IMG/VR virus record: IMGVR_UViG_3300047160_036266
Coordinates: 192,001 to 256,000 of that record
Direction: 5' to 3' (one strand)
From: a virus
Lineage: Duplodnaviria; Caudoviricetes
Length of the DNA stretch: 64,000 nucleotides
Part shown: positions 6,592 to 59,141 of the stretch, piece after piece
Numbering within the stretch: the stretch's first letter is position 1
How the letters are laid out: each line of letters starts with the position of its first letter
The notes under the pieces: model-generated
What the model was told of the DNA's origin: nothing
The model's database searches: none
What the model saw: the letters and a program-made list of their open reading frames with translations, nothing else
Program-made: the position numbers and the translations under genes

Positions 6592-6810
6592 TTACGGGGC
6601 TTCGTCAGAAGGTGCCTTGCGGCTAGGCTGATGCTTGCCCATCTTCTGTAGGGCGTCGGCAGCGTGGGGCATGAAATAACCGTCCGGGTACTGCTGGCGA
6701 ACATAGGCATCGGGGTAAGCCCAATGAGCAATACCGGCCCGCTTGGTGTCTTCACTGACTGCGGGGATTTCCAGCTTGTTCTCTTCGGCCCATGCGATAA
6801 ATGTCTTCAT
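6592..6810 (-). CDS. Small WAYPD-motif protein, copy 1
   Basis: GAGG RBS; MKTFIAW start; TKRAGIAHWAYPDAYVR..YPD..FMPHAADALQKM. Confidence 0.75.
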   Translation of the reverse strand: MKTFIAWAEENKLEIPAVSEDTKRAGIAHWAYPDAYVRQQYPDGYFMPHAADALQKMGKHQPSRKAPSDEAP

Positions 6811-6879
6811 ATTACCTCTCGTAGTTTTGGCCAAACTATGATTTTATAGTAGTCTGCATCGCGCAGACCTGGAGTAGTT

Positions 6880-34241: not shown

Positions 34242-34673
34242 ATGAGCGGCAAGGGTTCTGGCTTCAGCAGCGATTTGTTGAAACTTATTTTCAACGGCAC
34301 TCCGATCAGCGGCATTGCCGAAAATGCGTCTACGCCGCTGACGGTTTATTATGTGAGCTTGCACACTGCCTCGCCGGGTGTTTACGGCAATCAGTCCACA
34401 TCGGAGGCAACTTATCCGGGCTATGGTCGGGTGCCGGTGCCACGGGATGCGACTCACTGGACGGTCAGTGGTGATGTTGTGTCGCCTGTCAATCCCATTC
34501 AGTTCCCGGCGGCGACGGGCGGGTATGAAACAGAGACTTTCTTTGCGGTGGGGACGGACCCGTTCCCGGTTGCCGGCAGGCTTTTATATTTCGGTCCTAT
34601 CAATCCCAATCTGGGCGTAAGCGAGGGCGTCACGCCTCAACTGCGAAATGTTTCAACGATTACTGAGTGCTAG
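34242..34673 (+). CDS. Phage tail-fibre-type structural protein (second member of family)
   Basis: LLKLIFNG..YVSLHTASPG..GNQSTSEATY..YGRV..FPAATGG. Confidence 0.8.
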   Translation: MSGKGSGFSSDLLKLIFNGTPISGIAENASTPLTVYYVSLHTASPGVYGNQSTSEATYPGYGRVPVPRDATHWTVSGDVVSPVNPIQFPAATGGYETETFFAVGTDPFPVAGRLLYFGPINPNLGVSEGVTPQLRNVSTITEC

Positions 34674-35808
34674 GTTTTAGTTGCTGGAAAAGGTCTTCGA
34701 TACGCACATTCTCCAGCCCCGGCCAGATGTCGGTGTTCAGGAATATTCCGTCTGTGGCATCGCTGCCGATCATGCGATAGGTGCCTTTCCAGCGGGTCTG
34801 GATACATTTGGTGGGGATGCCGACCAGAAGAGTGTAGGTCTTGAGCCAGGTATCCGTGGAAACGGCTTCGGTGGCCCCGTTGATAAGGGCCAGCATGTCC
34901 TTGAGGGTGTGCGTAGTGCGCCGTCCCGTGTGGTCGATAACCCCTTCGGCGGTCAACCAGCGACAACTGGAGTTGTTGGGAATCTTGTAGGCTTCGTAAT
35001 CGAAGGGCGAGCCGGTGACGAGGACGAGATAGCCTTTGGCGAGGTAAAGATTGACCAGTTCGTTATATTCACTCTGGGTCAGGAACCGTTGCCGGTTAAA
35101 GTCATGTCGGCTCGATCCAGTGGGACCGATGACGACAGTGGGGCGGTTAAAGTTGCTCCTCCCGATAGTGTCGGCCCATGTTACCTGGGTGACGAGTCTG
35201 GCCTTGTACTTGTAAGGATTGACAATCCAATCGCCGTAGTCAAGGCCATCCGCCAGGTGCGCTGATACCTGCATATTTTTGAATGCTCGCATCATGTTAT
35301 AGACGTAGCTGCCGGCTTTCTGACCCATGATGTTATGGTGCAGGAAGGCTTTGACATTGAAAAGATCAAACCACTGTTTGGTGAAGTGCGGTTCGTTATG
35401 GAAGAATACCACTTTGGCGTTGGGGTTGTTATAGCACGCCGCCAGCACCAGGAGGGCATCGCCAACGCCACCGAACCCTAGATACCAGTCGCCGTCCTTG
35501 CCCAACCAGTCATGCACCTGGCGCTCGATATGGCCGGCGGCTATCTCTTCGAGTTTTTGCGCAGCTACGAACGGGGATTGGGCCAGGTCCGGTCTGGCGG
35601 AATACCGCTTCTGCCGGCCATTTCTAATCTCATGGACCGGCGCAGGTGGGAGTTGAGCCGGAGCGATGATCTTGTTCAGTTCGTAAACAGGCATACCGCT
35701 GCGAGATGGTTTTTTCGATAATGCTTCCCGTAATCGTTCCTGGTGGATGTCCCTTCTCGCCGTGCCCTTTACTACTTTTTTGTTCCGAGGGTCCATATTA
35801 TTTAGCAT
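34660..35808 (-). CDS. GT9-like (heptosyltransferase-fold) glycosyltransferase
   Basis: GFGGVGDALL and VSTDTWLKTYTLLVGIPT match GT9 spacing. Confidence 0.6.
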   Translation of the reverse strand: MLNNMDPRNKKVVKGTARRDIHQERLREALSKKPSRSGMPVYELNKIIAPAQLPPAPVHEIRNGRQKRYSARPDLAQSPFVAAQKLEEIAAGHIERQVHDWLGKDGDWYLGFGGVGDALLVLAACYNNPNAKVVFFHNEPHFTKQWFDLFNVKAFLHHNIMGQKAGSYVYNMMRAFKNMQVSAHLADGLDYGDWIVNPYKYKARLVTQVTWADTIGRSNFNRPTVVIGPTGSSRHDFNRQRFLTQSEYNELVNLYLAKGYLVLVTGSPFDYEAYKIPNNSSCRWLTAEGVIDHTGRRTTHTLKDMLALINGATEAVSTDTWLKTYTLLVGIPTKCIQTRWKGTYRMIGSDATDGIFLNTDIWPGLENVRIEDLFQQLKPSTQ

Positions 35809-36208
35809 TTCCTAATGGCGATGAGGCGCTTTGGTCCGGCGGACCTCCAGGTGTTACGCCCTGGTCAGGCATATCGCCTTCTCCCTCCGGCAGCGGCAGG
35901 AACTTGATCCTTTGGAAAATCATATTCAAGTCCTTGCGTAATTGGGCCTTGCTACTGTAACCCATACCTTCCAGCGTTTGTAATATGCGGGTAGCATTCT
36001 GAGATAGTTGCCCGCTGGCAGTTGGTTGTGCTTCGTCCGGGTGTCCAAGAGCCTGCTGCTTTTTCATCATGGCCCTCATCTTGGGGTCATCAATGGCAGA
36101 CAGACGGCTCTGGGTTCCTGTCGCGTGAAGGACACCGCCGGGTTGGCCAACCTGGGGTTGTTCTTCATTCAACTTTGTTTCACGCATCCACTGTGCGAAT
36201 TTCCTCAT
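35798..36208 (-). CDS. Hypothetical protein with capsid-targeting-like N-terminus
   Basis: MRKFAQWMRETKLNE; GGAGG RBS. Confidence 0.7.
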   Translation of the reverse strand: MRKFAQWMRETKLNEEQPQVGQPGGVLHATGTQSRLSAIDDPKMRAMMKKQQALGHPDEAQPTASGQLSQNATRILQTLEGMGYSSKAQLRKDLNMIFQRIKFLPLPEGEGDMPDQGVTPGGPPDQSASSPLGNAK

Positions 36209-37087
36209 TTATGCCTCCAAATTTGCTGGCGGTTCCATTGTTTGTTCTGGCGGTCGTGGCTGACCACGCATCTTATCCAGGTAGCCAGCGACCTTATTTA
36301 CGTTGGTCGTCTTGCCGCCACCCGATGCCTGTTCCGCCGGAAATACGGCCTTCAGCACAGCGGCCAGCATGTCCAGGGCGAACTCTTTGACCTGCGGCGT
36401 GTCCTCGCGCCAGTCATCTATATGGTAGTCTTGAGCGTATTTGTTCTTGAGAGTAATAACCGTGTTCCGCAGGTTGCTCAGCATGTGCGGGGGAAGGGGA
36501 ATGCGGTTCTTGCCGACGATCTTTTTGAGTTGATTCCAGTCGCCTGAACCCTCGTCCTCCTGGTTCATTGCTCGGCCCAATAGCCGGGTGTCCGTGGTCC
36601 GGGCGCTGCCACTGATGTCGGAGTCGGGTAGAATGAGCTTGAGAATGGTGCCCATCATTTGGATGGCGAATTTCTTGGCTGTACCGGCAGGTATATCAAC
36701 CTTGAAGTTGGCCCGGCCTTTGTTTTTGGATACCAGATTGGCAAACTGGTCCTTCGTCTTTTCAACTTCCCCGGCCATCGCGTGTTCGTAGTCGGTGGTA
36801 AGTTCGCCTCTGAGTCGATTTGCTTTGGGTTGAAGGGCCGTAACCATCCCCGTCTTCGGCGCGATACGCACCCGATCAAAAAGGTACTTCAGACGCGAGA
36901 AGTCTGAATTGGTTTCTTCGTCTTCCGGGGCTTCCGGTCGGGGCGGTCTTGGCGCACGCTCAGGCTTGGGTGGAGGAGTGGCTGGCTGCGCCTTGGGGGC
37001 GTCCATTGGATCGCCCGGCGGCATCATGGGGCTGGGAGGCGGGGCTTGTTCGTACAGTTTTCTGCGCCATTGGTTGAGCGTTATCAT
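36209..37087 (-). CDS. Pro-rich protein with internal duplicated helical domain
   Basis: MITLNQWRRKLYE; KKFAIQMMGTILKLILP vs KEFALDMLAAVLKAVFP. Confidence 0.7.
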   Translation of the reverse strand: MITLNQWRRKLYEQAPPPSPMMPPGDPMDAPKAQPATPPPKPERAPRPPRPEAPEDEETNSDFSRLKYLFDRVRIAPKTGMVTALQPKANRLRGELTTDYEHAMAGEVEKTKDQFANLVSKNKGRANFKVDIPAGTAKKFAIQMMGTILKLILPDSDISGSARTTDTRLLGRAMNQEDEGSGDWNQLKKIVGKNRIPLPPHMLSNLRNTVITLKNKYAQDYHIDDWREDTPQVKEFALDMLAAVLKAVFPAEQASGGGKTTNVNKVAGYLDKMRGQPRPPEQTMEPPANLEA

Positions 37088-37440
37088 AGTTCGTCACGGT
37101 CCTCCGGCGGTTCTGGCGTACTGCCGCCCCCAAAGGGGTCTTCCTCCGAAGTATGGATGAGCTTGCCACGCTTCTTCGGGTCCGGCACAGCGTCCGCCTG
37201 CTGTACTTTTTCAAGAACGTGCCGCACCTTGCTGTGCCATCCCGATATAACGGTCATAGGCACGCCCAATAGTTCAGACATGCCGGCTCCGTTGTTGATA
37301 ACGAGTAGGAAATCGTCCCAGAAATCCTCCCGCACGTTGATGCCGGTACGGATCGCATCCATCGCCTTCGACTCAGAGGCTTTGTTTTCTTCCTCACGGA
37401 AGTTGTGCATATTTTCCAGAAGCCTCTGGAACGAAGTCAT
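37084..37440 (-). CDS. Hypothetical protein
   Basis: MTSFQRLLE; GGAGG RBS. Confidence 0.7.
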   Translation of the reverse strand: MTSFQRLLENMHNFREEENKASESKAMDAIRTGINVREDFWDDFLLVINNGAGMSELLGVPMTVISGWHSKVRHVLEKVQQADAVPDPKKRGKLIHTSEEDPFGGGSTPEPPEDRDEL

Positions 37441-37449
37441 GGCCCCTCC

Positions 37450-37866
37450 TTACTGCACGGAAACCAGGATCAGCGTGTCCCGCACCGGGTCAGGTGGATT
37501 GGACACATACAGGTTCTTCAAGTAAACCCCCTGATGGCCGAAGGCCACAATGGTATCACCGTGGCGGTAGTAACCGTCCTTCAAGCTGGTGCCAGGTATG
37601 TTTACCTGGGTGCCGTTGGCATTGGTGACAGTACCTTCGCCTGCGTGCGGTTCGAGCCTGGAAAAGCTTTGACCAGGCATAGCGCCCGGAAGCCAGATGG
37701 TTCGGTGGAACTTCTGGTCATCGACTTCCACATAGGTGCCGCCCGAATTACCAATAGGCGTTTGCAGACGGTTGTTCGGATGATCCCACGAGGAATACTG
37801 TTGAGTCTCCAAGTTGACCGTAAAGGTATAAACGGGACCGGGTTGGCTGTTATTTATCTGTGCCAT
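37450..37866 (-). CDS. Hypothetical protein
   Basis: GGAGGAG RBS. Confidence 0.7.
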   Translation of the reverse strand: MAQINNSQPGPVYTFTVNLETQQYSSWDHPNNRLQTPIGNSGGTYVEVDDQKFHRTIWLPGAMPGQSFSRLEPHAGEGTVTNANGTQVNIPGTSLKDGYYRHGDTIVAFGHQGVYLKNLYVSNPPDPVRDTLILVSVQ

Positions 37867-37889
37867 ATATCTCCTCCATTACACCGTAT

Positions 37890-38141
37890 TTAGGGTACTA
37901 CCTTCCTTTTCTTGTCTGGTTCGGGCATTTCTTCCTCGTCTTCTTCCTCATCGCCTTCTTCCTCATCGCCCTTGACTCCGAGGAACAGTTCGTCAGGATT
38001 GAACGTACTAGGCCCATTGGGTGCTTCCCGTGCGTGGTACTTGCTATTGACGCCCTTGATGCCGAACGCGATGTTGGCGTTATTGGGGTCGTCAATTACC
38101 GGCCCCACCATCTCCTGCAACCACTGGCGGAAGGTTTTCAT
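37890..38141 (-). CDS. Small acidic protein with capsid-targeting-like N-terminus
   Basis: MKTFRQWLQE; TATATA 4 nt upstream. Confidence 0.7.
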   Translation of the reverse strand: MKTFRQWLQEMVGPVIDDPNNANIAFGIKGVNSKYHAREAPNGPSTFNPDELFLGVKGDEEEGDEEEDEEEMPEPDKKRKVVP

Positions 38142-38185
38142 GTCATATATAAGCAGCATTGGGGCAATTGTCGCTATATACCTGC

Positions 38186-39559
38186 ATGTTCCGCATGAAC
38201 TTCAGGGACTTTCTGCATGAGGCCGAGATCGTGGGTGGACAGTTGATGGGCAGCGAACAGGCTGCGCTGCGCATCGTCATGCCCTTCAGAAATAGCAACT
38301 GGCACATGCTGACCCTGCTCGATGGCCCACACCATCCGATCCATAGCCCGAAACAAGGCTCTATTATCGACTGCATGACCGTGGAGGAATTCCTGACCAA
38401 CGGCCTAGCCGGCTGGGCGGACGACGACACGCCACGACCTCGCCACCTTGCGGTTCTCCAGGTCATTGATAAGAACGCTGCGATCCGCTGTTTGGACGGC
38501 ACCCACATGACCAATCCCTGGCAATGGTTAAACTTCGACGCCAACTTTATGCGTCAAGCAGCAATGCGTGGCTTAAAAGACATGAAGCCGGTTATGTATC
38601 AGGGCAAGGAAATCAGTCCGGGTGGTGCCCCGAATTGGGAGAAGATAGCGCATCAGATGTTTCACGGCCCTGACCCGTTCGCCAAACCGGGGGCGAAGCA
38701 GCCTGACCTAACGGATCAGGAACGGGATGAGATGTGGCGAGCCAAGCTCGCCAAGACCATCTATGGCGATCTGCCCGACGTGTATGCCAAAGGAACCCGG
38801 CGGGACACGATGTACAACGACAAATATTATCAGCGGTACGGCAAGGTCATGCGGGGTGCCGACATCGACATCGTGGCTGAACATTGCCCGCTGAGCAAGG
38901 GTGGTTTTATCAAGGTCTTCAACCCCAGGGTTGTGCGCGAGGTCGCGCGTTTTCAAATTCGTTCTAACTTTGACGGCTATCGCAGCATGGGTGGTGACTT
39001 TTTGGCGACCAGGCCGGCATCGGAGAAGGAAGCCGAAGGAGTACAAGATAAACTCAACGACATCTTCCAAGATATTGCAGATGCACCGGAGGAAATGAGC
39101 AAGCGCATCGGCTATGTTATGGACAGCGAAGAGATGATGCGTTACATGGGGGGCGAGGAAGTTGAGGGTATCGGCTCGTTTGTGTTCCATGTGCTAGACG
39201 AAATCCACACCATCACCCGGACGGAGGGTATGGAGAAGATGATCCGTGGCTTGTACAAGGCATCCCGGCTCATGGGCATGATGCGCACACGCAGCGGCCA
39301 AGACTTCTCCGATGCCTGGGACGGAGTAGTTCGGTACAATCTTGAGTTCTACAAGAATATCCTGGTCGGCCTCCGGTCGATGAGCAAGCTCATCAAGGAT
39401 CAGTACGCTTACAAGGAAGGTGACAAGTATTACCGTGATGAGGCTGCTAAGCTCGACAAATGGTTTGCTGGGCTGACGCGATCCCTCATGGCCTTTGCGG
39501 ATGTGACGGGCCAATCGACGGAGCTACTGCGGCACCAACTTGGCCTGTTCACTGCTTAA
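38186..39559 (+). CDS. Hypothetical protein, putative head-internal
   Basis: Reads on + strand; CTATATA 5 nt upstream; MFRMNFRDFLHE. Confidence 0.75.
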   Translation: MFRMNFRDFLHEAEIVGGQLMGSEQAALRIVMPFRNSNWHMLTLLDGPHHPIHSPKQGSIIDCMTVEEFLTNGLAGWADDDTPRPRHLAVLQVIDKNAAIRCLDGTHMTNPWQWLNFDANFMRQAAMRGLKDMKPVMYQGKEISPGGAPNWEKIAHQMFHGPDPFAKPGAKQPDLTDQERDEMWRAKLAKTIYGDLPDVYAKGTRRDTMYNDKYYQRYGKVMRGADIDIVAEHCPLSKGGFIKVFNPRVVREVARFQIRSNFDGYRSMGGDFLATRPASEKEAEGVQDKLNDIFQDIADAPEEMSKRIGYVMDSEEMMRYMGGEEVEGIGSFVFHVLDEIHTITRTEGMEKMIRGLYKASRLMGMMRTRSGQDFSDAWDGVVRYNLEFYKNILVGLRSMSKLIKDQYAYKEGDKYYRDEAAKLDKWFAGLTRSLMAFADVTGQSTELLRHQLGLFTA

Positions 39560-40371
39560 AAGTTCTTCCAGATGCACTCGGTCTTGATCTTCTTGACCTT
39601 GGCCTGGGAGGAGTGGTTGGGTATCTTCTTTTTCACGCACTTCCAGCCTTTGTACAGCCGGTAATAGAGGGTTGAGTAATAGCCGCTTATCATGGCCTTG
39701 CCCTGGAAACGATTGAGGGCACGGGCTAACTCGATGTGGTCGGCCTCCGTCATTTCCAACTCGTAGGAGTCGGGACTAACGCGCGTTTCATGGAGGTAGG
39801 TCGGGTCGCAGTAGATGAGCGTATTGGGGTGGTTCCACTTGTCGATCACTTCCAGGGCCGGGCGGCTGAGGATATAAACGGACTTGATGCGTTCTGCAAC
39901 CAGGGGCAGGACATCGTTCAGGGCCGTCTCCCAGGCATTCAGGTCGCCCGGCTGTCCGCCACGAAGACGTTCGGACCAGGCGAACGCCTTCATCAGTCCG
40001 TCACGGGACATCCGCCGCAGGATGAAGGAATTGATCGCCTGATGGAAGAAGGTTATTTGCCGTTCGTCCTTGCACTCCAAAGCGCCACGAAAGACCTCTT
40101 TGCAGTATTTGATCTTCTTGAGGTAGTCGATGAACTCCTGGGTGTTGTCCCGGAGCATCTTGAAGATCAACGTCACGCCTTCGTCCAGGTCGTTGATCGT
40201 TTCCTCGAACTCCAGTGAGGAGGGAGGTTTTTTGTTGAGCAGGACGCTGGCCGCACCGCAATACGGCTCCAGGTAGTTCATCTCGGTATAATTCGGCGGA
40301 AAGTTGGCAATGATCCACGGGGCCAGGTAATACTTGCCGCCATGAATCTTGAAGGGGGGCCGAATGCGCAT
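39556..40371 (-). CDS. dam: DNA adenine methyltransferase (Dam/D12 class)
   Basis: GGKYYL, YLEPYCGAASV, INDLD, YCDPTY. Confidence 0.9.
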   Translation of the reverse strand: MRIRPPFKIHGGKYYLAPWIIANFPPNYTEMNYLEPYCGAASVLLNKKPPSSLEFEETINDLDEGVTLIFKMLRDNTQEFIDYLKKIKYCKEVFRGALECKDERQITFFHQAINSFILRRMSRDGLMKAFAWSERLRGGQPGDLNAWETALNDVLPLVAERIKSVYILSRPALEVIDKWNHPNTLIYCDPTYLHETRVSPDSYELEMTEADHIELARALNRFQGKAMISGYYSTLYYRLYKGWKCVKKKIPNHSSQAKVKKIKTECIWKNF

Positions 40372-40373
40372 GG

Positions 40374-40574
40374 TTACTCTTTCTTGCCTTGGTGAATCAG
40401 TCGCTTGCAGAACACACAGATTATATCATACGGGCCGTAGCCTTTCGAGGCCCCTGGCCAGAACCAGCCGAGGTCCGGGTGATCTTCGTCATGGCATTTT
40501 TCGCACATCGCTGCCATTTTCTGTTCGTCCTCCGGCAAACTTTGGTCAACGAACCAGTAGCTATTTTCTGACAT
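40374..40574 (-). CDS. Small zinc-finger protein
   Basis: CEKC and CVFC; AGGAGG RBS. Confidence 0.7.
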   Translation of the reverse strand: MSENSYWFVDQSLPEDEQKMAAMCEKCHDEDHPDLGWFWPGASKGYGPYDIICVFCKRLIHQGKKE

Positions 40575-40600
40575 ATTTACCTCCTGCCCCTAAATAACGT

Positions 40601-40903
40601 ATGCTGCAAACCCTAAGAAAGATGGCCTGTTCCGTCTACGAACCCCTCACCCAAGCTAACCTGCTCTCCCTGGTGGGTCCGACCAGTGGTGCCTACGCCA
40701 TGCTCTCGCCCCTGCCTCTGGATCGTTGGAAGATCATCAGTTTTGATTCGGCCAATGCTCTCGTGTGCATCCAGATGGACGCCCCATCCGGCAGCAGGAT
40801 AATCAACGTGAAGGTGGACATCAGCGCAATGGAAACCCCACCCCAAACCCAACCGAGACAATTTAACGACGTTCATCCCACCGGGCAATACACGCCGCAC
40901 TAG
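40601..40903 (+). CDS. Hypothetical protein
   Basis: CTAAATA 4 nt upstream of ATG. Confidence 0.65.
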   Translation: MLQTLRKMACSVYEPLTQANLLSLVGPTSGAYAMLSPLPLDRWKIISFDSANALVCIQMDAPSGSRIINVKVDISAMETPPQTQPRQFNDVHPTGQYTPH

Positions 40904-42156
40904 CTCTTGAAATAGTTGCGGTTCCCCAAGCATTCATTGGCTTCGCTGATGCGCTTGAGGGCCAGTGCGTAGCACGCCGTCCGCACCGGGATGTGATACT
41001 GGAACCGCCGCACCATCGTCCGCTCGGTGGCATACTGCATCATCTTTTTCAGCCGGCTGTTTACGTCGTCCAGGGTCTTTAGCTCGGCGGTGCGGTTCTG
41101 CAACCACTCAAAATAGGAGACGACTACGCCACCGGCATTCGCCAATATATCAGGAATCACCACGATATTTTTTTCGTTCAAAATGGCGTCGGCCTCGTTG
41201 GTGGTCGGCCCGTTCGCCAATTCAAATACCATCCTGGCCCGGACTTGATCGGCATTCTCAGCGGTCAAGACGTTCTCGATAGCCGCCGGGGCCAATATGT
41301 CAACGTCCAACAGGAGCAATTCCTTGTTGGTGATCTTACTGCCCTGGCCGTCCAATTCCCCTGACTCCAGGTGCTTGCGCAGGGCGACGGGATTGAGGCC
41401 GTTCTCGTTGTAGACCCCGCCGTTCTCATTGCTTATCGCCACCACTTTCAGGCCATTCTTGTAGCACTTCTCGGCAAACCAGTATCCGACCTTGCCGAAC
41501 CCCTGGATCGCAATGCGGATCGACTCCTTCACCGGCAGGTTCACCTTGTCCAGATAGTGGTCCATCAGTGCTTCCAGCACATAATAGCCACCGTAGCCCG
41601 TGGCCGAGTTTCTTCCTTCGATACCGCCCAGCGCCACAGGCTTGCCCGTCACTACGTCCAGAGGATGTCCGCCCTTGATCTTGCGGTACTCGCTGTACAT
41701 CCAGCCCATCACCCGCTCGTCGGTCCCCATGTCCGGGGCCGGAATGTCGATATTCGGCCCAATAAAGTCGGCCACGGCAGCAATATAAGCCTTGCTCAAC
41801 CGCTCCAGTTCACGATGGGACAGTTTCTTGGGGTCCACGCTGATCCCGCCCTTGGAACCGCCGAAGGGAATGTTCAGGGCCGCACATTTGAACGTCATCC
41901 AGAATGCCAGCGCCTCGCAATGATCCCGGTCCACCGCCGGGTGATAACGCACCCCACCCTTGGCCGGACCACGGGTAGTATCATATTGACAGCGGTATGC
42001 CTTGTAGAGCTTGAGAGTTCCGTCGTCGTGACGCATGGGGATGGAACAGTACAATGTTTTTTGTGGATATTGCAGGCGCTCCCAGCTTTCCGGGTCGATG
42101 TCTGCATATTTGGCAGCGGCGTCAAGCTGCTTCTTCGCGTCTTCGAGCATAGACAT
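40900..42156 (-). CDS. gdhA: Glutamate dehydrogenase (Glu/Leu/Phe/Val family)
   Basis: GPAKGGVRYHP, GGSKGG, IPAPDMGT, VTGKP, QGFGKVG, ELANGPT, PDILANAGGV. Confidence 0.95.
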   Translation of the reverse strand: MSMLEDAKKQLDAAAKYADIDPESWERLQYPQKTLYCSIPMRHDDGTLKLYKAYRCQYDTTRGPAKGGVRYHPAVDRDHCEALAFWMTFKCAALNIPFGGSKGGISVDPKKLSHRELERLSKAYIAAVADFIGPNIDIPAPDMGTDERVMGWMYSEYRKIKGGHPLDVVTGKPVALGGIEGRNSATGYGGYYVLEALMDHYLDKVNLPVKESIRIAIQGFGKVGYWFAEKCYKNGLKVVAISNENGGVYNENGLNPVALRKHLESGELDGQGSKITNKELLLLDVDILAPAAIENVLTAENADQVRARMVFELANGPTTNEADAILNEKNIVVIPDILANAGGVVVSYFEWLQNRTAELKTLDDVNSRLKKMMQYATERTMVRRFQYHIPVRTACYALALKRISEANECLGNRNYFKS

Positions 42157-42234
42157 GGGGCCTCCTTGTATATATCACGAAACCGAGGCAGTTTTATTTA
42201 TTCCAAATCGTCTTCATGGCACCTACATACAAAC

Positions 42235-43044
42235 ATGAAATCGTTCTTTTTTGCGTGCCTATTTACCACATCTTTATTGTTCACCCTGACATCGAGATTT
42301 TCAACTAAGGCGGACGAACCGGACATCGAGTTACATAAAAAGTGTCTGTACCCGACCGTGCGCGTGGAGAATGAAGGGAGTGGCGGCACCGGCGTTATTG
42401 TTCGTAGCGATAGGGTAGGCGACAAGGAATATCGAAATGTTGCCATCACCTGCGCCCATGTTATCCATCCATTGTCAAGATACAAGGTTCGCGTCCCGAC
42501 CTACGAAGAGTGGTCCACCTTCGTGGAGTTCGAGGATTATCCGTGTCGCGTGTACGGCAAGAATGAGGATGCGGACCTGACTGTTCTGTTGTTTACCACA
42601 CCCCGCCCGATGCCAGTGGCCACCTTCGGGTTCCGGGAAAGTTTGTATATCGGCACCGACGTATATCACATCGGTTGCGGGCTGGGGCCTGAGCCTCGTC
42701 TGGATTATGGGAAGATCACTTCCCTTGGCAGCAAGATCGAAGGCCACAGTGCCAAAGCCTATCGGACCTCAATGAACATGGTTCCTGGGGATTCGGGAGG
42801 GCCGGTATTCCACAAGCACCGCCTGGTGGGCTTTTCCCAGGCGATCAAGGTATTGTGTTTCCGGGGCTTCCCCACGCCCATCACACACATATCCTACATC
42901 ATTCCAGTGGAGCGGGTTAAAACCTGGGATGAAAAGGAAAATAACACCCTGCATTTCATATATAAGGAGCGACACGACTTGCCAGAGCTTCCCTTCGCCA
43001 TCTTGCGATTGGAAGAGTATCGCTGGGAGGGTCTTCCTAAGTAG
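42235..43044 (+). CDS. Trypsin-like serine protease with signal/TM leader
   Basis: TCAHV, DLTVL, GDSGG triad; CTACATA 5 nt upstream. Confidence 0.88.
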   Translation: MKSFFFACLFTTSLLFTLTSRFSTKADEPDIELHKKCLYPTVRVENEGSGGTGVIVRSDRVGDKEYRNVAITCAHVIHPLSRYKVRVPTYEEWSTFVEFEDYPCRVYGKNEDADLTVLLFTTPRPMPVATFGFRESLYIGTDVYHIGCGLGPEPRLDYGKITSLGSKIEGHSAKAYRTSMNMVPGDSGGPVFHKHRLVGFSQAIKVLCFRGFPTPITHISYIIPVERVKTWDEKENNTLHFIYKERHDLPELPFAILRLEEYRWEGLPK

Positions 43045-43055
43045 CGGAGAAGGGG

Positions 43056-44627
43056 ATGCAAACTTTCCAAGATTATGTGACTTCCAATAAAATGCACCGG
43101 CTGGCCGGACAGGCGTTTACCCTGATGGTCCAGCACGGCTACGATCCGATGGCGTTCGTAGAGTGGTTTGAGGACGAGGGCGTTTACCTGTCGGTGCGGG
43201 AAGCAGCAGTCCAAGCGAAAGGTGGGCTTCGTCGCCTGGATGAATTATCATGGGCTAACTTGGTAGGAAAAGGGTGGTTGTGGGGGCGTGGCAAGCAACA
43301 GCCAAAAGGACCAAGTTGGGATGAAATCGGCGGGCCGGAAATGTTCCCCCATGATGAAACCCCCGGTGCCGCAGGCGCAGCCCAAGGTGCCACTCCGGGA
43401 CAGCCACAGCAACCAATGACTGCGCCGCAAATGGGCGACCTTACCAAACAGCGTGCAGTCCAAAATGCTGTAACCAAGCTGCAAGATTTGCAATACAAAG
43501 ATTGGATTTATGACAAGAACCCTCAGCTTACTGCGGCGCTGAATCAAATTGTTCAGTTGTTGCAGGCCCCGCAGGTGCCGGTACAGCAAACGCAACCACC
43601 AGCCGCCCCCACAGAACAACCAGCCAAACCACCACAGGTTCATGCCTCAACGATAGCACCCGTTGGGTCGCCGCCGCCGGGTGGTGCGCATATGGCTCCT
43701 TCGTTTATGAATGCCGACTGGCGTACTCCTGCCGGTTCGCCATTGAGGGAGTACAACAAGATGCTTATTGACCGTACCGTGGATAAACTGGTACGGGCAG
43801 GCATCAACCCGATGTTATTTGTGGACTGGTATAGCACCGAAGGTATTTTCTGTGAAAACGCTCAGGTGTTCGAGGGCCGCTTAGGGGATTGGATGGGGGC
43901 CATTGGCAAGGGTATTGGGAGTTGGTTCGGTGGAAGCGGCTTTAAGCACGGTTATGATGCGCGTTACAACACCATTGCCGTGCAGACGGCAGGAGCGGCC
44001 AGGCAAGCCTTGGCTGATCTCCAAAGCACTCACCCAGACCTGGGTGGCCCAAATATGGCCAGCAACCTAAAGTTCGCAATCGGTGAGTTGGATAAGATCA
44101 TCAAAGAGAAGGGCGGCACTGAATTTAAGGACATCAACAAGCCGGCATCGGGAGTGGATTGGTCCAAACTGAAAGGGCCAACGCCTGGTGAAGAGCAACC
44201 ACCGGGTTCGGCGCAGCCGCCTGCGGCGGCTAAGCCTGCGGAACCCGCCCCCGCACCAGTACCGGCGGGTCACACTCCTGGCACTACAGCACCGTCGCAG
44301 GAAGGCATCCCACCGGAGACTATAACCAAGCTCCGTAATGCAATAGACAATCCAAGCCATGCCGATGCCAGCGACCCCCAGGTGGCGGAAATCCTGAATA
44401 ACCCACAGATCAAGGCCGAGGTCGAGCGGATTCACAAACTGGATGACAATGACCCGCAATTTGCCGGAAAAGACCCGCAAACAGCGAAGCACGAACTAAT
44501 TGCCCAGCAGGTCCGAAATATTTGGGACCAACTGCGCAGCGGTCATATTGATGTTGGTGCCCAGGGTGCTGACTGGTACAGACCCATCGGCAAGCCCTTT
44601 ATGGAATGGCTCAGAGAGAGGCAATAA
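43056..44627 (+). CDS. Modular Pro/Gln-rich protein with duplicated domain, putative head-internal
   Basis: MQTFQDY; GYDPMAFVEWFEDEG vs GINPMLFVDWYSTEG; ends FMEWLRE. Confidence 0.75.
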   Translation: MQTFQDYVTSNKMHRLAGQAFTLMVQHGYDPMAFVEWFEDEGVYLSVREAAVQAKGGLRRLDELSWANLVGKGWLWGRGKQQPKGPSWDEIGGPEMFPHDETPGAAGAAQGATPGQPQQPMTAPQMGDLTKQRAVQNAVTKLQDLQYKDWIYDKNPQLTAALNQIVQLLQAPQVPVQQTQPPAAPTEQPAKPPQVHASTIAPVGSPPPGGAHMAPSFMNADWRTPAGSPLREYNKMLIDRTVDKLVRAGINPMLFVDWYSTEGIFCENAQVFEGRLGDWMGAIGKGIGSWFGGSGFKHGYDARYNTIAVQTAGAARQALADLQSTHPDLGGPNMASNLKFAIGELDKIIKEKGGTEFKDINKPASGVDWSKLKGPTPGEEQPPGSAQPPAAAKPAEPAPAPVPAGHTPGTTAPSQEGIPPETITKLRNAIDNPSHADASDPQVAEILNNPQIKAEVERIHKLDDNDPQFAGKDPQTAKHELIAQQVRNIWDQLRSGHIDVGAQGADWYRPIGKPFMEWLRERQ

Positions 44628-45828
44628 TCTTCACGGCTTCGTCGGCATCCTCCATGCTGAAGGTGAGCGGCGGTCGCAGTCGAATACTGCGGTCGCCGCT
44701 TTTCAGCATCAACATCCTGTCGCTCAACCTGCAATAAGCCTCGCCCTGGTCAATCGGATCAAAAGCAATCATCAGCCCCCGACCCCGTACATTACGAATC
44801 GGAACATTGGCGTTGCGGAGTTTGTCCAGCAGGTAGTCCCCGACTTTGGCGGCGTTCTCCACCCACTTTTCCCTCACGATGATCTCACTCAGAATAGTGA
44901 AGCGTATCATATCGAGGATGTTGCCGCCCCAGGTGCTATTGATGCGCCCGCTGTCGTTGAAGACGTGCTTGGTCACTTCGTCCACTTTATGGGTGGCACA
45001 GCAACCGCACACCTGGGTCTTCTTGCCGAAGCACATGAGGTCGGGTTGGAGGTCGAAGTGTTCGTAGCCCCACATTTTGCCGGTCAGACCTACGCCCGTT
45101 TGCACTTCGTCCACGATGAACAGAGCGTCGTATTTCCGGGCGAGAGAACGGAGGCCCTGGAGGTATTGGGGCCGGAAATGGATGTCACCCCCTTCGCCTT
45201 GAATTGGCTCCACAATAACGGCAGCTACATTGCCACGCTCCAGGGCGTTCTGGGCGACCGCTAGACTTGCCTCCTCGCCGTCGTTAGGGGCGGGCAGCCT
45301 GGTCCAGCGGAACTTGGGATAGCCCCAAGTCTTGACGGGCTTGGTGTTGGTGAGGGACAGCGTGTAGCCGCTCCGACCGTGGAACGCATGTTCCAGGTGG
45401 ATCACATCCAATATATTGGCATGTGCGTCCCGGTCCCAGCCCATCTTCTTCATCTTGTAATCAAAGGCGCACTTGAGGGCGTTCTCCACTCCCAGGGTGC
45501 CGGTGTCGATAAAGAAGTAGTAACGGAAGTCTGGGGTGATGCTTTTGAACGCCTCTACGAATTCGGCGTACTCCCGAACGTATACGTCCGACAGGGCGAT
45601 CTTTACCGACAGGAGAGAGCGGAAACGGTCCAGGTGGTCGTTGAAGGAGGGGTGGTTCCAGCCGAGAGGTTGGCTGGCGAACATCGACATGCAATCGAGG
45701 TATTTGGTGCCGGTGCGGGCGTCAACTACATAGGAGCCGAGACTGCGCAGAGGGTCCACAATGATGGGAAGACCATCCCCTATCGTGTGCTTTCGCAACA
45801 CGTCATGGACATCCTCGTTGCGAATCAT
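44611..45828 (-). CDS. lat: L-lysine 6-aminotransferase (class III PLP aminotransferase)
   Basis: ASQPLGWNHP, GVENALK.AFD, AFHGRSGYTLSLTNT, EPIQGEGGD, DEVQTG, FGKKTQV, RINSTWGGN. Confidence 0.9.
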   Translation of the reverse strand: MIRNEDVHDVLRKHTIGDGLPIIVDPLRSLGSYVVDARTGTKYLDCMSMFASQPLGWNHPSFNDHLDRFRSLLSVKIALSDVYVREYAEFVEAFKSITPDFRYYFFIDTGTLGVENALKCAFDYKMKKMGWDRDAHANILDVIHLEHAFHGRSGYTLSLTNTKPVKTWGYPKFRWTRLPAPNDGEEASLAVAQNALERGNVAAVIVEPIQGEGGDIHFRPQYLQGLRSLARKYDALFIVDEVQTGVGLTGKMWGYEHFDLQPDLMCFGKKTQVCGCCATHKVDEVTKHVFNDSGRINSTWGGNILDMIRFTILSEIIVREKWVENAAKVGDYLLDKLRNANVPIRNVRGRGLMIAFDPIDQGEAYCRLSDRMLMLKSGDRSIRLRPPLTFSMEDADEAVKIIASL

Positions 45829-45831
45829 GGG

Positions 45832-46107
45832 TTAAATCCAGCCGGTTTTTATTCCTTGTTGGATGTCTTCCAACGTCACCTTGCGGCCCAAGAAGTCGCT
45901 GACGCTCTGGATAAAATGCTTGGCAATATCTTCCTGTACGGCACGCATGAACTGCGGTCCCATCTTTTGCGCTTCAATGAAAGACGATGAATCCACCGAC
46001 CAATCCAGCATTTCGCCGCCAATGAAAATCTTCTTTTCGATACTCCCGTCTGGGTGCATTCGCATTTTAACTTCAAAAGACTTCTTCTCAAGTGGTTCGT
46101 CAGCCAT
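45832..46107 (-). CDS. Hypothetical protein
   Basis: TATAAT 5 nt upstream of ATG on minus strand. Confidence 0.7.
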   Translation of the reverse strand: MADEPLEKKSFEVKMRMHPDGSIEKKIFIGGEMLDWSVDSSSFIEAQKMGPQFMRAVQEDIAKHFIQSVSDFLGRKVTLEDIQQGIKTGWI

Positions 46108-46139
46108 GTTTTATTATAGTGCGTTCCCTACATATTTCC

Positions 46140-47558
46140 ATGCCAGATGCCCTGTCCTTCCGCCTGTGGTTACAACAGCAGGAGACGCTGCCGCCGTTTG
46201 AGGAAGGCGTCATGCAGTGGCTTGGCGATAAATGGGGTAGGTTCAAGAAGTGGCTGGGCGATTTGAAGCAGGCGGCTGGCGCGACCTATCGCTCCGTCAT
46301 GGTCATGTGGAAGAAAGCCCCGGAACTGCATAACGTGCTGATGGAATTGCCCATTGCCTTTGACGCCGCCATGCGCGACCCCGTTCTCAAGGACACCACC
46401 CTCAATAAGAGCTTCATCGCTGCCCTCAAGCAGATGTCCCAAGACCCCTCGCTGGAAAAACAAGCAATACTCGCCAAGATCAAGAATATTCAGCAGTTGG
46501 TTCAGCAAGGCGGCGACGAGGCAGCCATTGCTGAGGAGTTCTGGCGGTCCAACGTCGGAGGCTTTGTCCGCTGGCTGTGGCAGCTTACTCACCTGGGTCC
46601 GATCCTGAAGCGACTGCCCCAGGTCACGGTGGTAAATGCCTGGCGGACTTTGCAGGCGTTCTGGGATAAGGAGCAGGGGAAAGTATCCGTCAAGGTCGGT
46701 GCCTTTGCCGCCGTTATGGCAGCCCTGGAGTTGTTGCAATTTCTGGCAGCCGGTGCCCTGATGACCGGGTTGTTGGGCAAGGCCCTTATTCTCTTGCACC
46801 TTACCACGCTGGGGGTGGCTTTTGCCGGCGGGGCCTGGATTGCCTGGGCGGTGGTCAGCGCCCTCCATAAAGAGGGAGGCCAAAAGGACTCTGAGGAAGA
46901 GCAGGCTGCCAAGATCATGGCCGGTGTGATGAAGGCCATCGACCCAGGTGCCGACACGGGCCTCATGAAGAATGTGGACTGGTATAAGAGCCATCTGCGG
47001 CAGCGCCAGCAGAAGATACAGCAGCAGCGCGCCGGCGTCCAACCAGCAGTTGCCGAAAGTACCGCCCACGAGTTATACGATAGCGCCGTTGCCGCCTTCC
47101 CCAACACCACCAGGAGGCAACACGCTACGGACCCCATTAGAATCACCCAACTGGAGTGGACGCCCTTCCTGGGACTGAAAACCCTGTTCATCAAGGCCCT
47201 GGCGCAAAACCCGGACGGCACCAGGGGCTTCTCGGAATATCAGCCGATGATTTTGTGGAAGAACGTCAACTACAATCCGAACCGGCGAGTTGTTGAGATC
47301 ATCGCCAGTGACCAGCAGCCCTATCGCTTCGAGAGGTTGGAATATGATGGCAATGACGTGTTGCTGCGCTGTGATTGTGCCGACTTCCACTGGCGATTCA
47401 ACTACTACGACCACCTGGACAAGTCCCTTTACGGCAGGAAGCGGCGCAAATACGAGAGTCAGGGCGGTCCTCCGGCCAACCCCCAGGAGATGCCGGGCAT
47501 GTGCAAACACATCATGAAGCTGTTCAAGGCTTTAGGTGAAGCAGGCGTCGTTGATTAG
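46140..47558 (+). CDS. Hydrophobic-hairpin + SWIM zinc-finger protein
   Basis: CTACATA 5 nt upstream; long hydrophobic segment; LRCDCADF...MCKHI. Confidence 0.75.
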   Translation: MPDALSFRLWLQQQETLPPFEEGVMQWLGDKWGRFKKWLGDLKQAAGATYRSVMVMWKKAPELHNVLMELPIAFDAAMRDPVLKDTTLNKSFIAALKQMSQDPSLEKQAILAKIKNIQQLVQQGGDEAAIAEEFWRSNVGGFVRWLWQLTHLGPILKRLPQVTVVNAWRTLQAFWDKEQGKVSVKVGAFAAVMAALELLQFLAAGALMTGLLGKALILLHLTTLGVAFAGGAWIAWAVVSALHKEGGQKDSEEEQAAKIMAGVMKAIDPGADTGLMKNVDWYKSHLRQRQQKIQQQRAGVQPAVAESTAHELYDSAVAAFPNTTRRQHATDPIRITQLEWTPFLGLKTLFIKALAQNPDGTRGFSEYQPMILWKNVNYNPNRRVVEIIASDQQPYRFERLEYDGNDVLLRCDCADFHWRFNYYDHLDKSLYGRKRRKYESQGGPPANPQEMPGMCKHIMKLFKALGEAGVVD

Positions 47559-47593
47559 TTAATAAGAATTGACGGCAGGTGCATATATAAACA

Positions 47594-47712
47594 AAAGAAG
47601 ATCGGAAAGCACACACTTCCCGACCCTCTTCTGCTTAATTAGAAAGGCTAATAAGGATGAGTCTTAGACCTTTCGACAACGATTCACCGGGGTGACGGAT
47701 CACCCCGGTTTT
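47594..47712 (+). ncRNA. Candidate small structured RNA / 12-aa peptide transcript
   Basis: ATATATA at 47583, 5' hairpin, RBS + MSLRPFDNDSPG* (47657-47695), terminal hairpin. Confidence 0.35.
47686..47712. terminator. Intrinsic terminator
   Basis: accggggtga-cgga-tcaccccggt followed by ttt. Confidence 0.8.
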
Positions 47713-47721
47713 CCATTTATA

Positions 47722-48063
47722 TTACTTGATGTTCGTTTCGCCCGAACCAACCGTGATGATTGCCCAATTCACCGTCGAGCCAACAGGGCTTGTAAAGGTG
47801 AACTGCCCCGGAACTCGTGCGGTCAGGAACGGGGCCGTGGCGTTGTTGGAGGTCAATACCACGATATAGGCAGCGGTGCCGCCTGGGATCGGGGGATGGT
47901 CAACGGTCGTGGATGTGGCGGTAACGGACGGACACGTTCCAGCCGCCATAACGCGAGGACCGATCAAGTGACCGACGCCCAAAGTGGTGTGCGGCGAACC
48001 TCGTGCCATCCCGTCTTGTACCGAACCCCAGCCACTTACACCAGTTACACTTGTTGCTCCCAT
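47722..48063 (-). CDS. Small beta-rich putative virion protein
   Basis: AAGGAG RBS; MGATSVTGVSG..LGVGHLIGPRVMAAGT. Confidence 0.7.
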   Translation of the reverse strand: MGATSVTGVSGWGSVQDGMARGSPHTTLGVGHLIGPRVMAAGTCPSVTATSTTVDHPPIPGGTAAYIVVLTSNNATAPFLTARVPGQFTFTSPVGSTVNWAIITVGSGETNIK

Positions 48064-48180
48064 TGATCTGTTCTCCTTTAGAAATATGAGCTAGTTCTCC
48101 TTTTATCTAAGCACCTGACGGCGAAAATATTGTCGTTTCAGAGCAAATAGTTCTGGCGGCAAAACCACTATATTTACTGT

Positions 48181-48792
48181 ATGAATGACGTGGAATTTCA
48201 AATGACAGGCGACCAAACGCAGACCGTCTTGGGTACGCTGCTGGGAACGGGCAGCATTATATTGCCGAAGGCGGGGAAGAACGCTTATCTGCAAATGCGA
48301 CAAAAGAAGAGTGGCGACGTGAACTGGCTCCGCTGCAAAGCAGAGGAACTGGTGAACATGGCTCGTCCCCATCCCTTTGTGGAGGACAAGGACAGTTGGC
48401 ATTGGGCGAGCGTGGCGAATCCGGTCTGGAATAGGTTTCTGCGGCTCTGCTATGAGAACGGGACGAAGACGGTGACGATGGACTGGTTGGACCCCTTACG
48501 CGACCGGGGCCACGCCGTCTGGTTCTTGGACAAGGGTTTGTATGACCAAAAGACCAGGCGAGTGGTCCTTAAAACCGCCTGGTTTGGGGAGAAAGGCACC
48601 AGCCTTATTCAGAAATACTTTGACCTGTGCGGTTACGAGTGCGAAGTGGAAGTCAATCGCAGCGTGTGGCGATTGGTATTTTCCCAGCAGGGCAGCGAGG
48701 AGTACCTGAAGCTTATTCTTCCTTGTTTTCCCAAATATCTTTTGGATCAAGCCTCTTTTCCCAATCCATCGCATATTCGTAAGTCGGGGTAA
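48181..48792 (+). CDS. Degenerate LAGLIDADG endonuclease-like protein
   Basis: VLGTLLGTGSI and AVWFLDKG occupy the two LAGLIDADG helices. Confidence 0.7.
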   Translation: MNDVEFQMTGDQTQTVLGTLLGTGSIILPKAGKNAYLQMRQKKSGDVNWLRCKAEELVNMARPHPFVEDKDSWHWASVANPVWNRFLRLCYENGTKTVTMDWLDPLRDRGHAVWFLDKGLYDQKTRRVVLKTAWFGEKGTSLIQKYFDLCGYECEVEVNRSVWRLVFSQQGSEEYLKLILPCFPKYLLDQASFPNPSHIRKSG

Positions 48793-58241: not shown

Positions 58242-59141
58242 TTAGCGGTCCTTTTTGACTCCAGAAAGAACGAGTAGTTCGTTGATTTCACTGTCGGGGT
58301 TGTTATATTCCGCAATAACAACGCCTTCCTCAGTGTTAGTATGTCCTCTCCCCGTTGCGTTCTTCACTTTCTGCACTCTTTCTTTCTGCTCAGTTATAAG
58401 CTGGCCCTTTTTCTGTTCGCTCTTGGCCTGCCTCTGTTCGGTGAGAAGTTCCTGAGCGTGGCGAACCGTCTCATTTAGCTTAGTATTGTCGTTCGATAAA
58501 CGAATATTGCGTGCTTCCATAATGCGAAGCTGGCCACGAAGCTCGTCATTCCCCTTGCGGGCTTCTTCGAGCTTGCTGCTGGTCGCCAGTGCATAGTCCT
58601 CGTCGGACAGGTAATTGGCGGTGATGTCCACGATCTTGTCGAGGGTGACTTTGTGTTCGGCCATGCGGGGGTCGTTGAGTACATCACGCTTGGCCTGCTC
58701 GTATATCTCGGCACCCTTGAACTGGAGGAACTGGTCCACCTTGTCAACGATGTAGTCCTTCATCTCGCCAAGCTTCTTGTCGTACTCCTCGTACATATCA
58801 ACTTCGAGCGTGTTGTTCTTTTCACGCTCTTGGAGGAGCATCTGATAGGCTTCCTCGTAACCCTCTTCCAGCGCCTTGTTGTACTCATCGCGCTGCATTT
58901 CCAGACGGTTCCGCAGGTCGGCAATAATGCCGTATGCCTCCTGATAGCCCTGGTAGGCGGTCTTCTCCGCATTGGACATTTCCTCAGAAAGCTGCTTATA
59001 CGCTTCCTCCAACTTGTCGTTGTACTCAGACTCCAGTTCACGCTTGCTACTTTCCAGCATGTCGTTGACGGCTGAAGCAACCTCGTTGATCTGGTCCTCT
59101 GGCAACAACTTCTTGAGAGCTTCCACTATTTTGTCTGCCAT
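58242..59141 (-). CDS. gp22: Prohead scaffolding protein (gp22-like)
   Basis: Acidic coiled coil between protease and capsid genes; ends ELLVLSGV. Confidence 0.8.
   Translation of the reverse strand: MADKIVEALKKLLPEDQINEVASAVNDMLESSKRELESEYNDKLEEAYKQLSEEMSNAEKTAYQGYQEAYGIIADLRNRLEMQRDEYNKALEEGYEEAYQMLLQEREKNNTLEVDMYEEYDKKLGEMKDYIVDKVDQFLQFKGAEIYEQAKRDVLNDPRMAEHKVTLDKIVDITANYLSDEDYALATSSKLEEARKGNDELRGQLRIMEARNIRLSNDNTKLNETVRHAQELLTEQRQAKSEQKKGQLITEQKERVQKVKNATGRGHTNTEEGVVIAEYNNPDSEINELLVLSGVKKDR

Follow-up and report, generated by a model that had tools for sequence, protein, structure and literature searches.

Several described systems border on the locus reported here. In the bacterial lysine 6-aminotransferase (LAT) pathway, typified by Mycobacterium tuberculosis Rv3290c (PDB code 2CIN; family model TIGR03251), the aminotransferase is accompanied by a piperideine-6-carboxylate (P6C) dehydrogenase. 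Classical transdeamination joins an aminotransferase to a glutamate dehydrogenase (GDH) through the 2-oxoglutarate/glutamate pair that both enzymes share, the cellular GDH being a housekeeping enzyme unlinked to lat. A third, ArgZ-type, route leads from arginine through ornithine to glutamate. In viruses, enzymes of central nitrogen metabolism are presumed to reprogram the infected cell: rumen phage metagenome-assembled genomes carry glutamine synthetase and asparagine synthase (PMC13196213), and giant eukaryotic viruses carry GDH, glutaminase and glutamine synthetase (PMC9270025). These two reports contain no lysine aminotransferase and no pairing of one with GDH, and those of GDH concern eukaryotic giant viruses. 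Here we describe a gene for a LAT-family aminotransferase (hereafter Lat) lying close to one for GDH in a 64,000-nucleotide stretch of phage DNA (the window), which corresponds to positions 192001-256000 of the 343,421-bp IMG/VR virus record IMGVR_UViG_3300047160_036266.

An earlier reading of this DNA from its letters alone (the original prediction) had proposed two complete enzymes with intact motifs, about 2.5 kb apart on the same strand and embedded among phage genes, which would form a lysine transdeamination pair not known to have been described in phages. The genes are as follows.

44611-45828, minus strand: LAT-family class-III, pyridoxal 5'-phosphate (PLP)-dependent aminotransferase, 405 aa, putative L-lysine 6-aminotransferase (Lat); Pfam Aminotran_3, 5.1e-77
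40900-42156, minus strand: GDH, 418 aa, small hexameric ELFV type; Pfam ELFV_dehydrog_N, 1.2e-53, and ELFV_dehydrog, 8.1e-62

Both open reading frames (ORFs) proved complete, with the boundaries first proposed and with 2,454 bp between them, and the integrity of the two enzymes is upheld by Pfam, by TIGR03251 and by alignment to the known structures 2TMG and 2CIN. We assign a probability of about 0.5 to the reading that Lat and GDH are two phage-owned auxiliary metabolic genes, facultatively coupled and most likely acting in the direction lysine to glutamate to NH4+. A literature search yielded no paper naming the pair, in agreement with the original prediction, and none on GDH in huge phages or on lysine 6-aminotransferase in phages. 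The enzymes are ordinary members of their families and viral nitrogen-metabolism genes are an already known category; what is new relative to the searchable literature is a LAT lineage confined to viruses, the conserved proximity of its gene to that of a phage-specific GDH in huge phages and, in another phage group, an alternative clustering with an aldehyde dehydrogenase (Aldedh) and an ArgZ-like gene.

The relationship of Lat to the LAT family was assessed with family models, structures and active-site residues. TIGR03251 (LAT_fam) is its best NCBIfam model, at 447.3 bits, followed by argD at 189 bits (a margin of 258 bits), and models of ornithine aminotransferases reach only 157 bits. Among PDB entries, M. 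tuberculosis LAT (2CIN) is matched with E=4e-96, compared with values of about 1e-29 to 6e-35 for ornithine aminotransferases. Active-site residues of the M. tuberculosis enzyme were taken from PMC9780415, and the window Lat keeps all of those listed: K300, E243, R170, R422, Q274, F167, N328 and T330. The PLP pocket (K300, D271, Q274, E238, F167, H168, S329 and T330 in M. tuberculosis numbering) is kept in the window Lat and in 20 of 20 huge-phage homologs. The substrate-recognition set, comprising the Glu243 switch, Arg422, Arg170 and Asn328, corresponds to E212, R383, R152 and N297 of the window Lat and is invariant across the huge-phage homologs, save for N328 (17/20). Val63 of the M. tuberculosis enzyme is replaced by Phe, a substitution shared by 72 of 80 cellular LATs. 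Lat is therefore judged, from its sequence, to be a true LAT-family member, of the same fold type as the bacterial enzyme and nested in the family tree; it differs in belonging to a virus-only subclade. Its substrate is most likely lysine, an assignment drawn solely from the conserved LAT active-site residues and the phylogeny. Ornithine is a possible substrate, with sequence and phylogeny still favouring lysine.

The GDH is matched over residues 31-409 by PF02812 (180.6 bits) and PF00208 (209.5 bits), and it matches the structure of Thermotoga maritima GDH, 2TMG (E=8e-111). The motifs GPAKGG, GGSKGG, DIPAPD and VSYFEW are intact. Aligned with and identical to 2TMG are the Lys of GPxKGG, the Lys of GGxKGG, the Lys in DPKK, the Asp of PAPD and the Ser of VSYFEW, which we take to be the catalytic (Lys in DPKK) and glutamate-specific positions. 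The dinucleotide fold reads GFGKVG ... ISN, a pattern not diagnostic for NAD versus NADP.

The two genes are flanked on both sides by viral genes, including a 3219-aa ORF and the following hallmarks, as the original prediction had maintained.

56780-58216, minus strand: T4-like major head protein (MCP)
59141-59824, minus strand: prohead protease
1207-2463, minus strand: RNA ligase

The window MCP shares 82% identity with its counterpart in LR756511, an uncultured phage of 595,163 bp, and contigs of 584-673 kb carry homologs of both Lat and GDH; on this basis the element is probably a huge phage, T4-like and related to LR756511. Contigs of this clade measure about 430-670 kb, its phages being of roughly 0.5-0.7 Mb, and a Lat protein identical to that of the window is present on a 669,797-bp contig, within the size range of the clade. 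The IMG/VR record is nevertheless tagged 'provirus', with a CheckV completeness of 69%, and this label, together with the typically cellular, housekeeping character of both enzymes, raises the question of whether host DNA was misassembled to phage DNA or represents the host flank of an integrated element. We consider the chance of such an artefact to be negligible. Sixteen other contigs, drawn from 15 samples, show the same gene order, with phage hallmarks on both sides; in the relative L004 the distance between Lat and an MCP sharing 96% identity with the window's is about 9 kb, as compared with about 11 kb in the window; GC, GC3 and codon usage of Lat and GDH are like those of other phage genes, the GC of record and window being a uniform ~0.55; and the viral Lat and GDH fall in clades of their own, at most 50% and 45% identical, respectively, to cellular proteins among the matches listed. 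A host-DNA chimera, which would have refuted the original prediction, is effectively excluded, because synteny in 16 contigs, phage-like codon usage and purifying selection all point the other way, and the two genes are judged to be phage-owned. They have the properties found in phage auxiliary metabolic genes: hallmarks on both sides, viral composition and conservation under purifying selection. The 'provirus' label was most likely produced by trimming. It is seen on many records of the huge-phage clade (G000, G046, G048, G050, G051, G053, G055 and G057), and such labels probably arise when pipelines trim gene-rich metabolic regions as host. The tag on records of this kind should be read neither as integration nor as host contamination.

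IMG/VR was scanned with the two proteins and with an alignment of Lat, and 73 loci were obtained. The pair does recur in relatives, as the original prediction had required: 16 more IMG/VR contigs, taken from 15 samples, have the order o488 / s91-Lat / 523-aa ORF, peptidase / GDH / o66-methyltransferase. The neighbours named in this order, and one further ORF, are located in the window as follows.

46092-47558, plus strand: o488, 488-aa protein, syntenic marker, divergent from s91-Lat
45832-46107, minus strand: s91, 91-aa conserved protein without assigned function, its stop 3 nt before the Lat start
43056-44627, plus strand: 523-aa P/Q/A-rich low-complexity protein, second gene of a plus-strand pair, convergent with Lat with a 17-nt overlap
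42235-43044, plus strand: secreted trypsin-like (Trypsin_2 / DegP-like) serine peptidase, 269 aa, with an N-terminal signal peptide; Pfam Trypsin_2, 1.4e-19
40601-40903, plus strand: 100-aa conserved ORF, converging on the GDH 3' end
40374-40574, minus strand: o66, 66-aa Cys-rich (CxxC...CxxC) protein, syntenic marker, directly upstream of the methyltransferase
39556-40371, minus strand: D12-class N6-adenine DNA methyltransferase (Dam-type); Pfam MethyltransfD12, 9.9e-18

Across the 16 syntenic contigs, identity to the window proteins is 48-89% for Lat and 65-98% for GDH. One syntenic relative, G055 (532,729 bp, completeness rated at 100%), has an MCP that shares 90% identity with the window's. 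Both genes are under purifying selection, with dN/dS values against the nearest relatives of 0.08-0.12 for Lat and 0.01-0.06 for GDH (s91, 0.12). The distance matrices of Lat and GDH in 14 genomes are strongly correlated (Mantel r = 0.87, a value reached in 0 of 5000 permutations), and GDH is kept in 15 of the 19 Lat-bearing lineages that could be scored.

The origin of the genes was examined by comparison of Lat with 80 cellular LATs from GTDB species and of GDH with the GDHs of 40 diverse cellular genomes. The phage Lat is 41-50% identical to the cellular LATs of the 80 species listed, and the viral GDH no more than 45% identical to its cellular counterparts among the matches listed. In none of the 80 cellular Lat loci does a GDH, s91 or methyltransferase gene lie within 8 kb, and 27 of them have an aldehyde dehydrogenase nearby; the Lat-GDH pairing is specific to the phages on this comparison. 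Conversely, Lat in the huge phages lies near GDH and never adjoins a P6C dehydrogenase. In a quick IQ-TREE tree, with SH-aLRT support only (marked *) and rooted with 19 other class-III aminotransferases (an unrooted version was also made), the LAT family is monophyletic (100*) and all phage Lats form one clade (97*) among the cellular LATs, the stem of which is short (0.14). The viral GDHs likewise form one clade, containing 23 of 23 sequences (100*), on a long stem. Since the viral Lats and the viral GDHs each form one clade, each gene appears to have entered the phage lineage once, long ago, and to have been inherited with the genome. Closer cellular donors may exist beyond the matches listed.

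From the established identity, ownership, conservation, selection and co-inheritance of the genes a mechanism can be proposed; its predicted elements are lysine as the substrate, the way in which GDH runs, the coupling of the two reactions, what becomes of P6C and what the phage gains. Lat would move the epsilon-amino group of L-lysine to 2-oxoglutarate, giving glutamate and allysine, the latter cyclising to P6C. GDH would interconvert glutamate with 2-oxoglutarate, NH4+ and NAD(P)H. The net reaction would be lysine + NAD(P)+ to P6C + NH4+ + NAD(P)H, with 2-oxoglutarate acting catalytically, and a small 2-oxoglutarate pool could turn over many lysines by way of GDH. The logic is that of classical transdeamination, with both partners intact in the phage; it differs in that the phage partners are virus-encoded and syntenic, their coupling being predicted. 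P6C would pass to host enzymes, because neither a P6C dehydrogenase nor a pyrroline-5-carboxylate (P5C) reductase is encoded in the 343-kb record. P5C reductase reduces P6C to pipecolate, and with host ProC acting in this way the loop would be redox-neutral. The likely benefit would be the mobilisation of amino-acid nitrogen and the setting of the glutamate/2-oxoglutarate balance for replication of a very large genome. A use in the infection of starved hosts, as suggested by the original prediction, would be a conjecture outside the sequence evidence. The window's genome also encodes aspartate carbamoyltransferase (PyrB) and an ArgZ-like enzyme, which counts in favour of this nitrogen-mobilising reading. 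No glutamine synthetase, class I/II aminotransferase (including aspartate aminotransferase) or second class-III aminotransferase was found in the 343-kb record. A supply of 2-oxoglutarate from GDH to 2-oxoglutarate-dependent dioxygenases was considered and rejected, there being no 2OG-FeII_Oxy_3 match in the same record.

P6C inactivates PLP, and the product of Lat might itself be the weapon: Lat could flood the cell with P6C/allysine or drain it of lysine, disturbing host PLP enzymes, amino-acid pools or stringent signalling, with nitrogen supply not the purpose. This form of host takeover would suit the lack of P6C dehydrogenase and P5C reductase genes in the record and in the complete G055, and overexpression of mycobacterial LAT is reported (PMC4726150) to change amino-acid pools and persistence. 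We nonetheless regard it as highly improbable. It has no direct support, the phage Lat itself requires PLP, some relatives encode an aldehyde dehydrogenase, and the retention of GDH alongside Lat suits a metabolic flux better than poisoning.

A second phage group bears on the choice of substrate. Twenty other IMG/VR contigs carry a Lat of the same viral clade, nested inside the huge-phage Lat clade, with neither s91 nor GDH. Here Lat is the last member of a contiguous cluster.

L064:7718-11206 (IMG/VR 3300030419_004857, G001): second-group cluster of Aldedh, then ArgZ/DDAH-like gene, then Lat

G001, the one record of this group read whole, is 161 kb long and rated complete, with a GC of ~0.40-0.42. 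Its TerL, tail fibre, DNA polymerase, ribonucleotide reductase, strand-block architecture and three tRNAs are features of a real phage, and a cellular or giant-virus source for the group was ruled out by all of these except the tRNAs. The second group gave no match to the T4-like MCP and none to a nucleocytoplasmic large DNA virus capsid, though for the latter a control search gave no signal either. Homologs of the cluster genes also occur in the huge phages: the window's genome encodes, about 150 kb upstream, an ArgZ/DDAH-like homolog with 45% identity to the second-group protein, relatives G057 and G058 have an ArgZ-like gene too, and the Aldedh encoded by LR756511, G056 and G058 shares 50-57% identity with the second-group enzyme. 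The best PDB and NCBIfam matches of the viral Aldedh, which was tested as an ALDH7-type P6C dehydrogenase, are generic. In the window's own genome (G000), outside the window, the ArgZ/DDAH-like gene is placed as follows.

G000:80822-85754 (locus L193:4823-9754): metabolic islet of PyrB, ArgZ/DDAH-like guanidino-modifying enzyme, GlpX-type fructose-1,6-bisphosphatase and histidine-phosphatase (PGAM-like)

PyrB of the islet passes its model TIGR00670 (297 bits against a cut-off of 237). The ArgZ-like protein falls below every NCBIfam cut-off (248 bits against 450).

These genes could together form an arginine/ornithine route, in which the viral LAT-like enzyme would be mainly an ornithine delta-aminotransferase. 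The ArgZ-like enzyme would convert arginine to ornithine and 2 NH3, the aminotransferase would yield glutamate semialdehyde/P5C and one glutamate, Aldedh would give a second glutamate, and GDH would free the remaining nitrogen or regenerate 2-oxoglutarate. The contiguity of Aldedh, ArgZ/DDAH-like gene and Lat in the 20 second-group contigs speaks for it, as do the position of the second-group Lat within the huge-phage clade, the presence of homologs of all three genes among the huge phages, and the second-group Aldedh, which is apparently not ALDH7-like and only ~30% identical to the Aldedh genes beside cellular Lat. Ornithine stays possible as a substrate because the same viral Lat lineage adjoins an ArgZ-like gene in that group. 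We nevertheless judge the route unlikely as the main function. The aminotransferase is of LAT and not ornithine aminotransferase type, by the wide margins given above, and nests among cellular LATs on its short stem; in the huge phages Lat, the ArgZ-like gene and Aldedh lie apart from one another; the ArgZ-like protein is under every family cut-off; and the complete G055 has Lat and GDH with neither an ArgZ-like gene nor Aldedh. No consistent operon was seen in the Aldedh neighbourhoods of the relatives.

Returning to a phage-encoded lysine to glutamate to NH4+ conversion, a number of findings weigh against it. As regards enzyme identity, Lat is under the TIGR03251 equivalog cut-off (447.3 against 520.8 bits) and GDH is under those of GdhB_Halo (439.5 against 620) and GdhA_Arch (433 against 750), the last two being lineage-specific models for which falling under the cut-off says little. 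As regards substrate, the second-group cluster of Aldedh, ArgZ/DDAH-like gene and Lat fits ornithine at least as well as lysine, and its Aldedh is the distant, apparently non-ALDH7 type described above. As regards the pathway, no second step is encoded, the 343-kb record having neither Aldedh nor P5C reductase, and both activity and expression of the pair are predictions. As regards the linkage, Lat and GDH do not form one operon, being interrupted by the plus-strand peptidase and 523-aa ORF, and each can be absent. GDH was not found in the complete LR756511 genome, in the records behind the Lat-bearing loci L031 and L057, or at the syntenic place in L033, a pattern which on the Lat tree needs at least three changes. 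Lat was not found in the GDH-bearing records G046 and G048; GDH without Lat is seen in a 298-kb record of the same clade (MCP 84% identical) and in a more distant 430-kb record rated 97% complete. In L011 (IMG/VR 3300032462_000002, 6686-7198) Lat is cut to its last 168 codons right after s91, with GDH intact, which looks like a loss of Lat caught in progress.

Obligate coupling, whether as co-transcription or as joint gain and loss, is accordingly not what is observed: the genes lie in separate units, and GDH-only and Lat-only genomes exist. Of the proposal that Lat and GDH act as one module, the co-occurrence and the co-variation of distances hold good; shared transcription and constant company do not, and the coupling is facultative, either gene being able to be kept alone. 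Each enzyme is probably useful alone, since each persists without the other, as expected if host enzymes supply the partner reaction. A rival account has two independent enzymes acting at the glutamate node, their proximity being inherited synteny rather than a functional module. GDH would then be assimilatory (2-oxoglutarate + NH4+ + NADPH to glutamate), raising glutamate or lowering the 2-oxoglutarate nitrogen-status signal, with Lat a separate glutamate source. The separate promoters and transcription units, and the intactness of each gene without the other in several lineages, are what this account would lead one to expect; the whole 8-kb block is syntenic, including the unrelated peptidase and methyltransferase, so that order may simply be conserved in the clade; PyrB indicates a demand for nucleotide precursors; and GDH, glutamine synthetase and related enzymes have been reported singly as viral metabolic genes (PMC9270025; PMC13196213). 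We find it doubtful all the same, if the least so of the rival accounts. The two enzymes have the 2-oxoglutarate/glutamate pair in common and would interact in one cytoplasm whatever their regulation, GDH is kept in most of the Lat-bearing lineages, and the 343-kb record offers no glutamine synthetase or aspartate aminotransferase by which the nitrogen could be passed on.

The wider gene content suggests a toolkit for basic amino acids and nitrogen in these phages. Tentatively, and at clearly less than even odds, the virus-restricted LAT lineage may travel with phage GDH, the ArgZ-like enzyme and Aldedh as a mix-and-match set, which would draw nitrogen from lysine and arginine and pass it, by way of glutamate and ammonium, to the nucleotide synthesis behind very large genomes; Lat and GDH with host ProC would be its minimal form, a redox-neutral loop from lysine to pipecolate and NH4+. 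Huge phages make ~0.5-0.7 Mb of DNA per particle, for which nitrogen supply is an obvious bottleneck, and phage nitrogen auxiliary genes have so far mostly concerned nucleotide synthesis, glutamine and asparagine. If the conversion of lysine proves true, the catabolism of basic amino acids would join the ways in which viruses rewire cells, with a bearing on nitrogen turnover in soil and sediment. Lat and GDH are a clean pair of soluble enzymes open to assay, and a virus-only LAT clade in two unrelated phage groups could show how the choice between lysine and ornithine is set in the LAT family.

Details of the neighbouring genes bear on transcription. The start of GDH is divergent from that of the peptidase, 78 bp away, the latter having been re-set from the sequence. 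GDH is apparently monocistronic: it is a single-gene unit because the plus-strand 100-aa ORF converges on its 3' end. That ORF is conserved (tblastn identity of 57% in L004 and weaker matches in at least 10 relatives), and the minus-strand ORF overlapping it is poorly conserved. Lat and GDH are in different transcription units because two opposite-strand genes sit between them. These, the peptidase and the 523-aa ORF (window 42235-44627), are a kept plus-strand pair wedged between Lat and GDH. The peptidase is found there in nearly all clade loci, at 33-77% identity, and is regarded only as a syntenic neighbour of the Lat/GDH pair. The 523-aa protein has neither a Pfam nor a PHROG match, and similarity at the same place in relatives is weak and partial.

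Directly 5' of Lat, s91 is present in every huge-phage locus with Lat. It is probably not a dedicated Lat subunit, since it is kept without Lat in L021 and L023 and was not found in the second phage group. The family has ~85 conserved residues ending in a C-terminal TGWI (or GYI/GWL), with an N-terminal extension that is variable in relatives. An AlphaFold2 model (pLDDT 76) has three strands and three helices; s91 gave no Pfam family and no Foldseek match (best E 0.15), with VIA Z values of at most 4.2. On the other side of s91, residues ~320-488 of o488 show tblastn identities of 47-92% in all s91-Lat loci. Beyond GDH, the methyltransferase lies 0.2-1.8 kb downstream in most clade loci, and o66, at 36-73% identity in ~20 loci, may be a zinc-ribbon partner or regulator of it. 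In LR756511 (492190-517434, L001), compared with window 34660-48792, the GDH segment is missing between methyltransferase and peptidase and the s91-Lat block is inverted.

A 'late-type ATATATA' had also been noted in front of GDH.

42169-42175, minus strand: ATATATA promoter-like box, 13 nt 5' of the GDH ATG and adjoining an AAGGAGG ribosome-binding site

The box is thus present, and the motif is enriched about 6-fold in the window, with 11 occurrences against 1.9 expected from shuffles; another copy lies 62 nt 5' of the head operon. In relatives the sequence 5' of GDH is TAAATA-like at most, or variable, so that ATATATA is not strictly kept. A late promoter at GDH is no more than plausible. 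ATATATA(A) sites, for example at 34230, 38145, 42169, 47583, 49708 and 61826, are mostly 12-62 nt 5' of ORF starts. A different box, CTACATA, occurs 5' of other genes, namely the peptidase and the fibre-like genes at 28713 and 31171.

Some further observations were made on the relatives and on the remainder of the window. The second-group cluster has as neighbours a GlmS-like gene, a glyoxalase and a UDP-glucose dehydrogenase, and G001 carries on its minus strand (138153-138536) a tmRNA, recognised by ARAGORN, with the tag AEKQYALAA. In the 381-kb relative G058 (L196:672-7166) Aldedh is part of a co-directional run with a thiamine pyrophosphate-dependent enzyme, IF3 and DnaJ. G055 has six short additional matches to pieces of the MCP, dispersed over the genome. 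Lastly, the window contains a LAGLIDADG_2 homing-endonuclease-like ORF (48181-48792, plus strand; Pfam 8.7e-17), the LR756511 homolog of which is found at a rearranged position.

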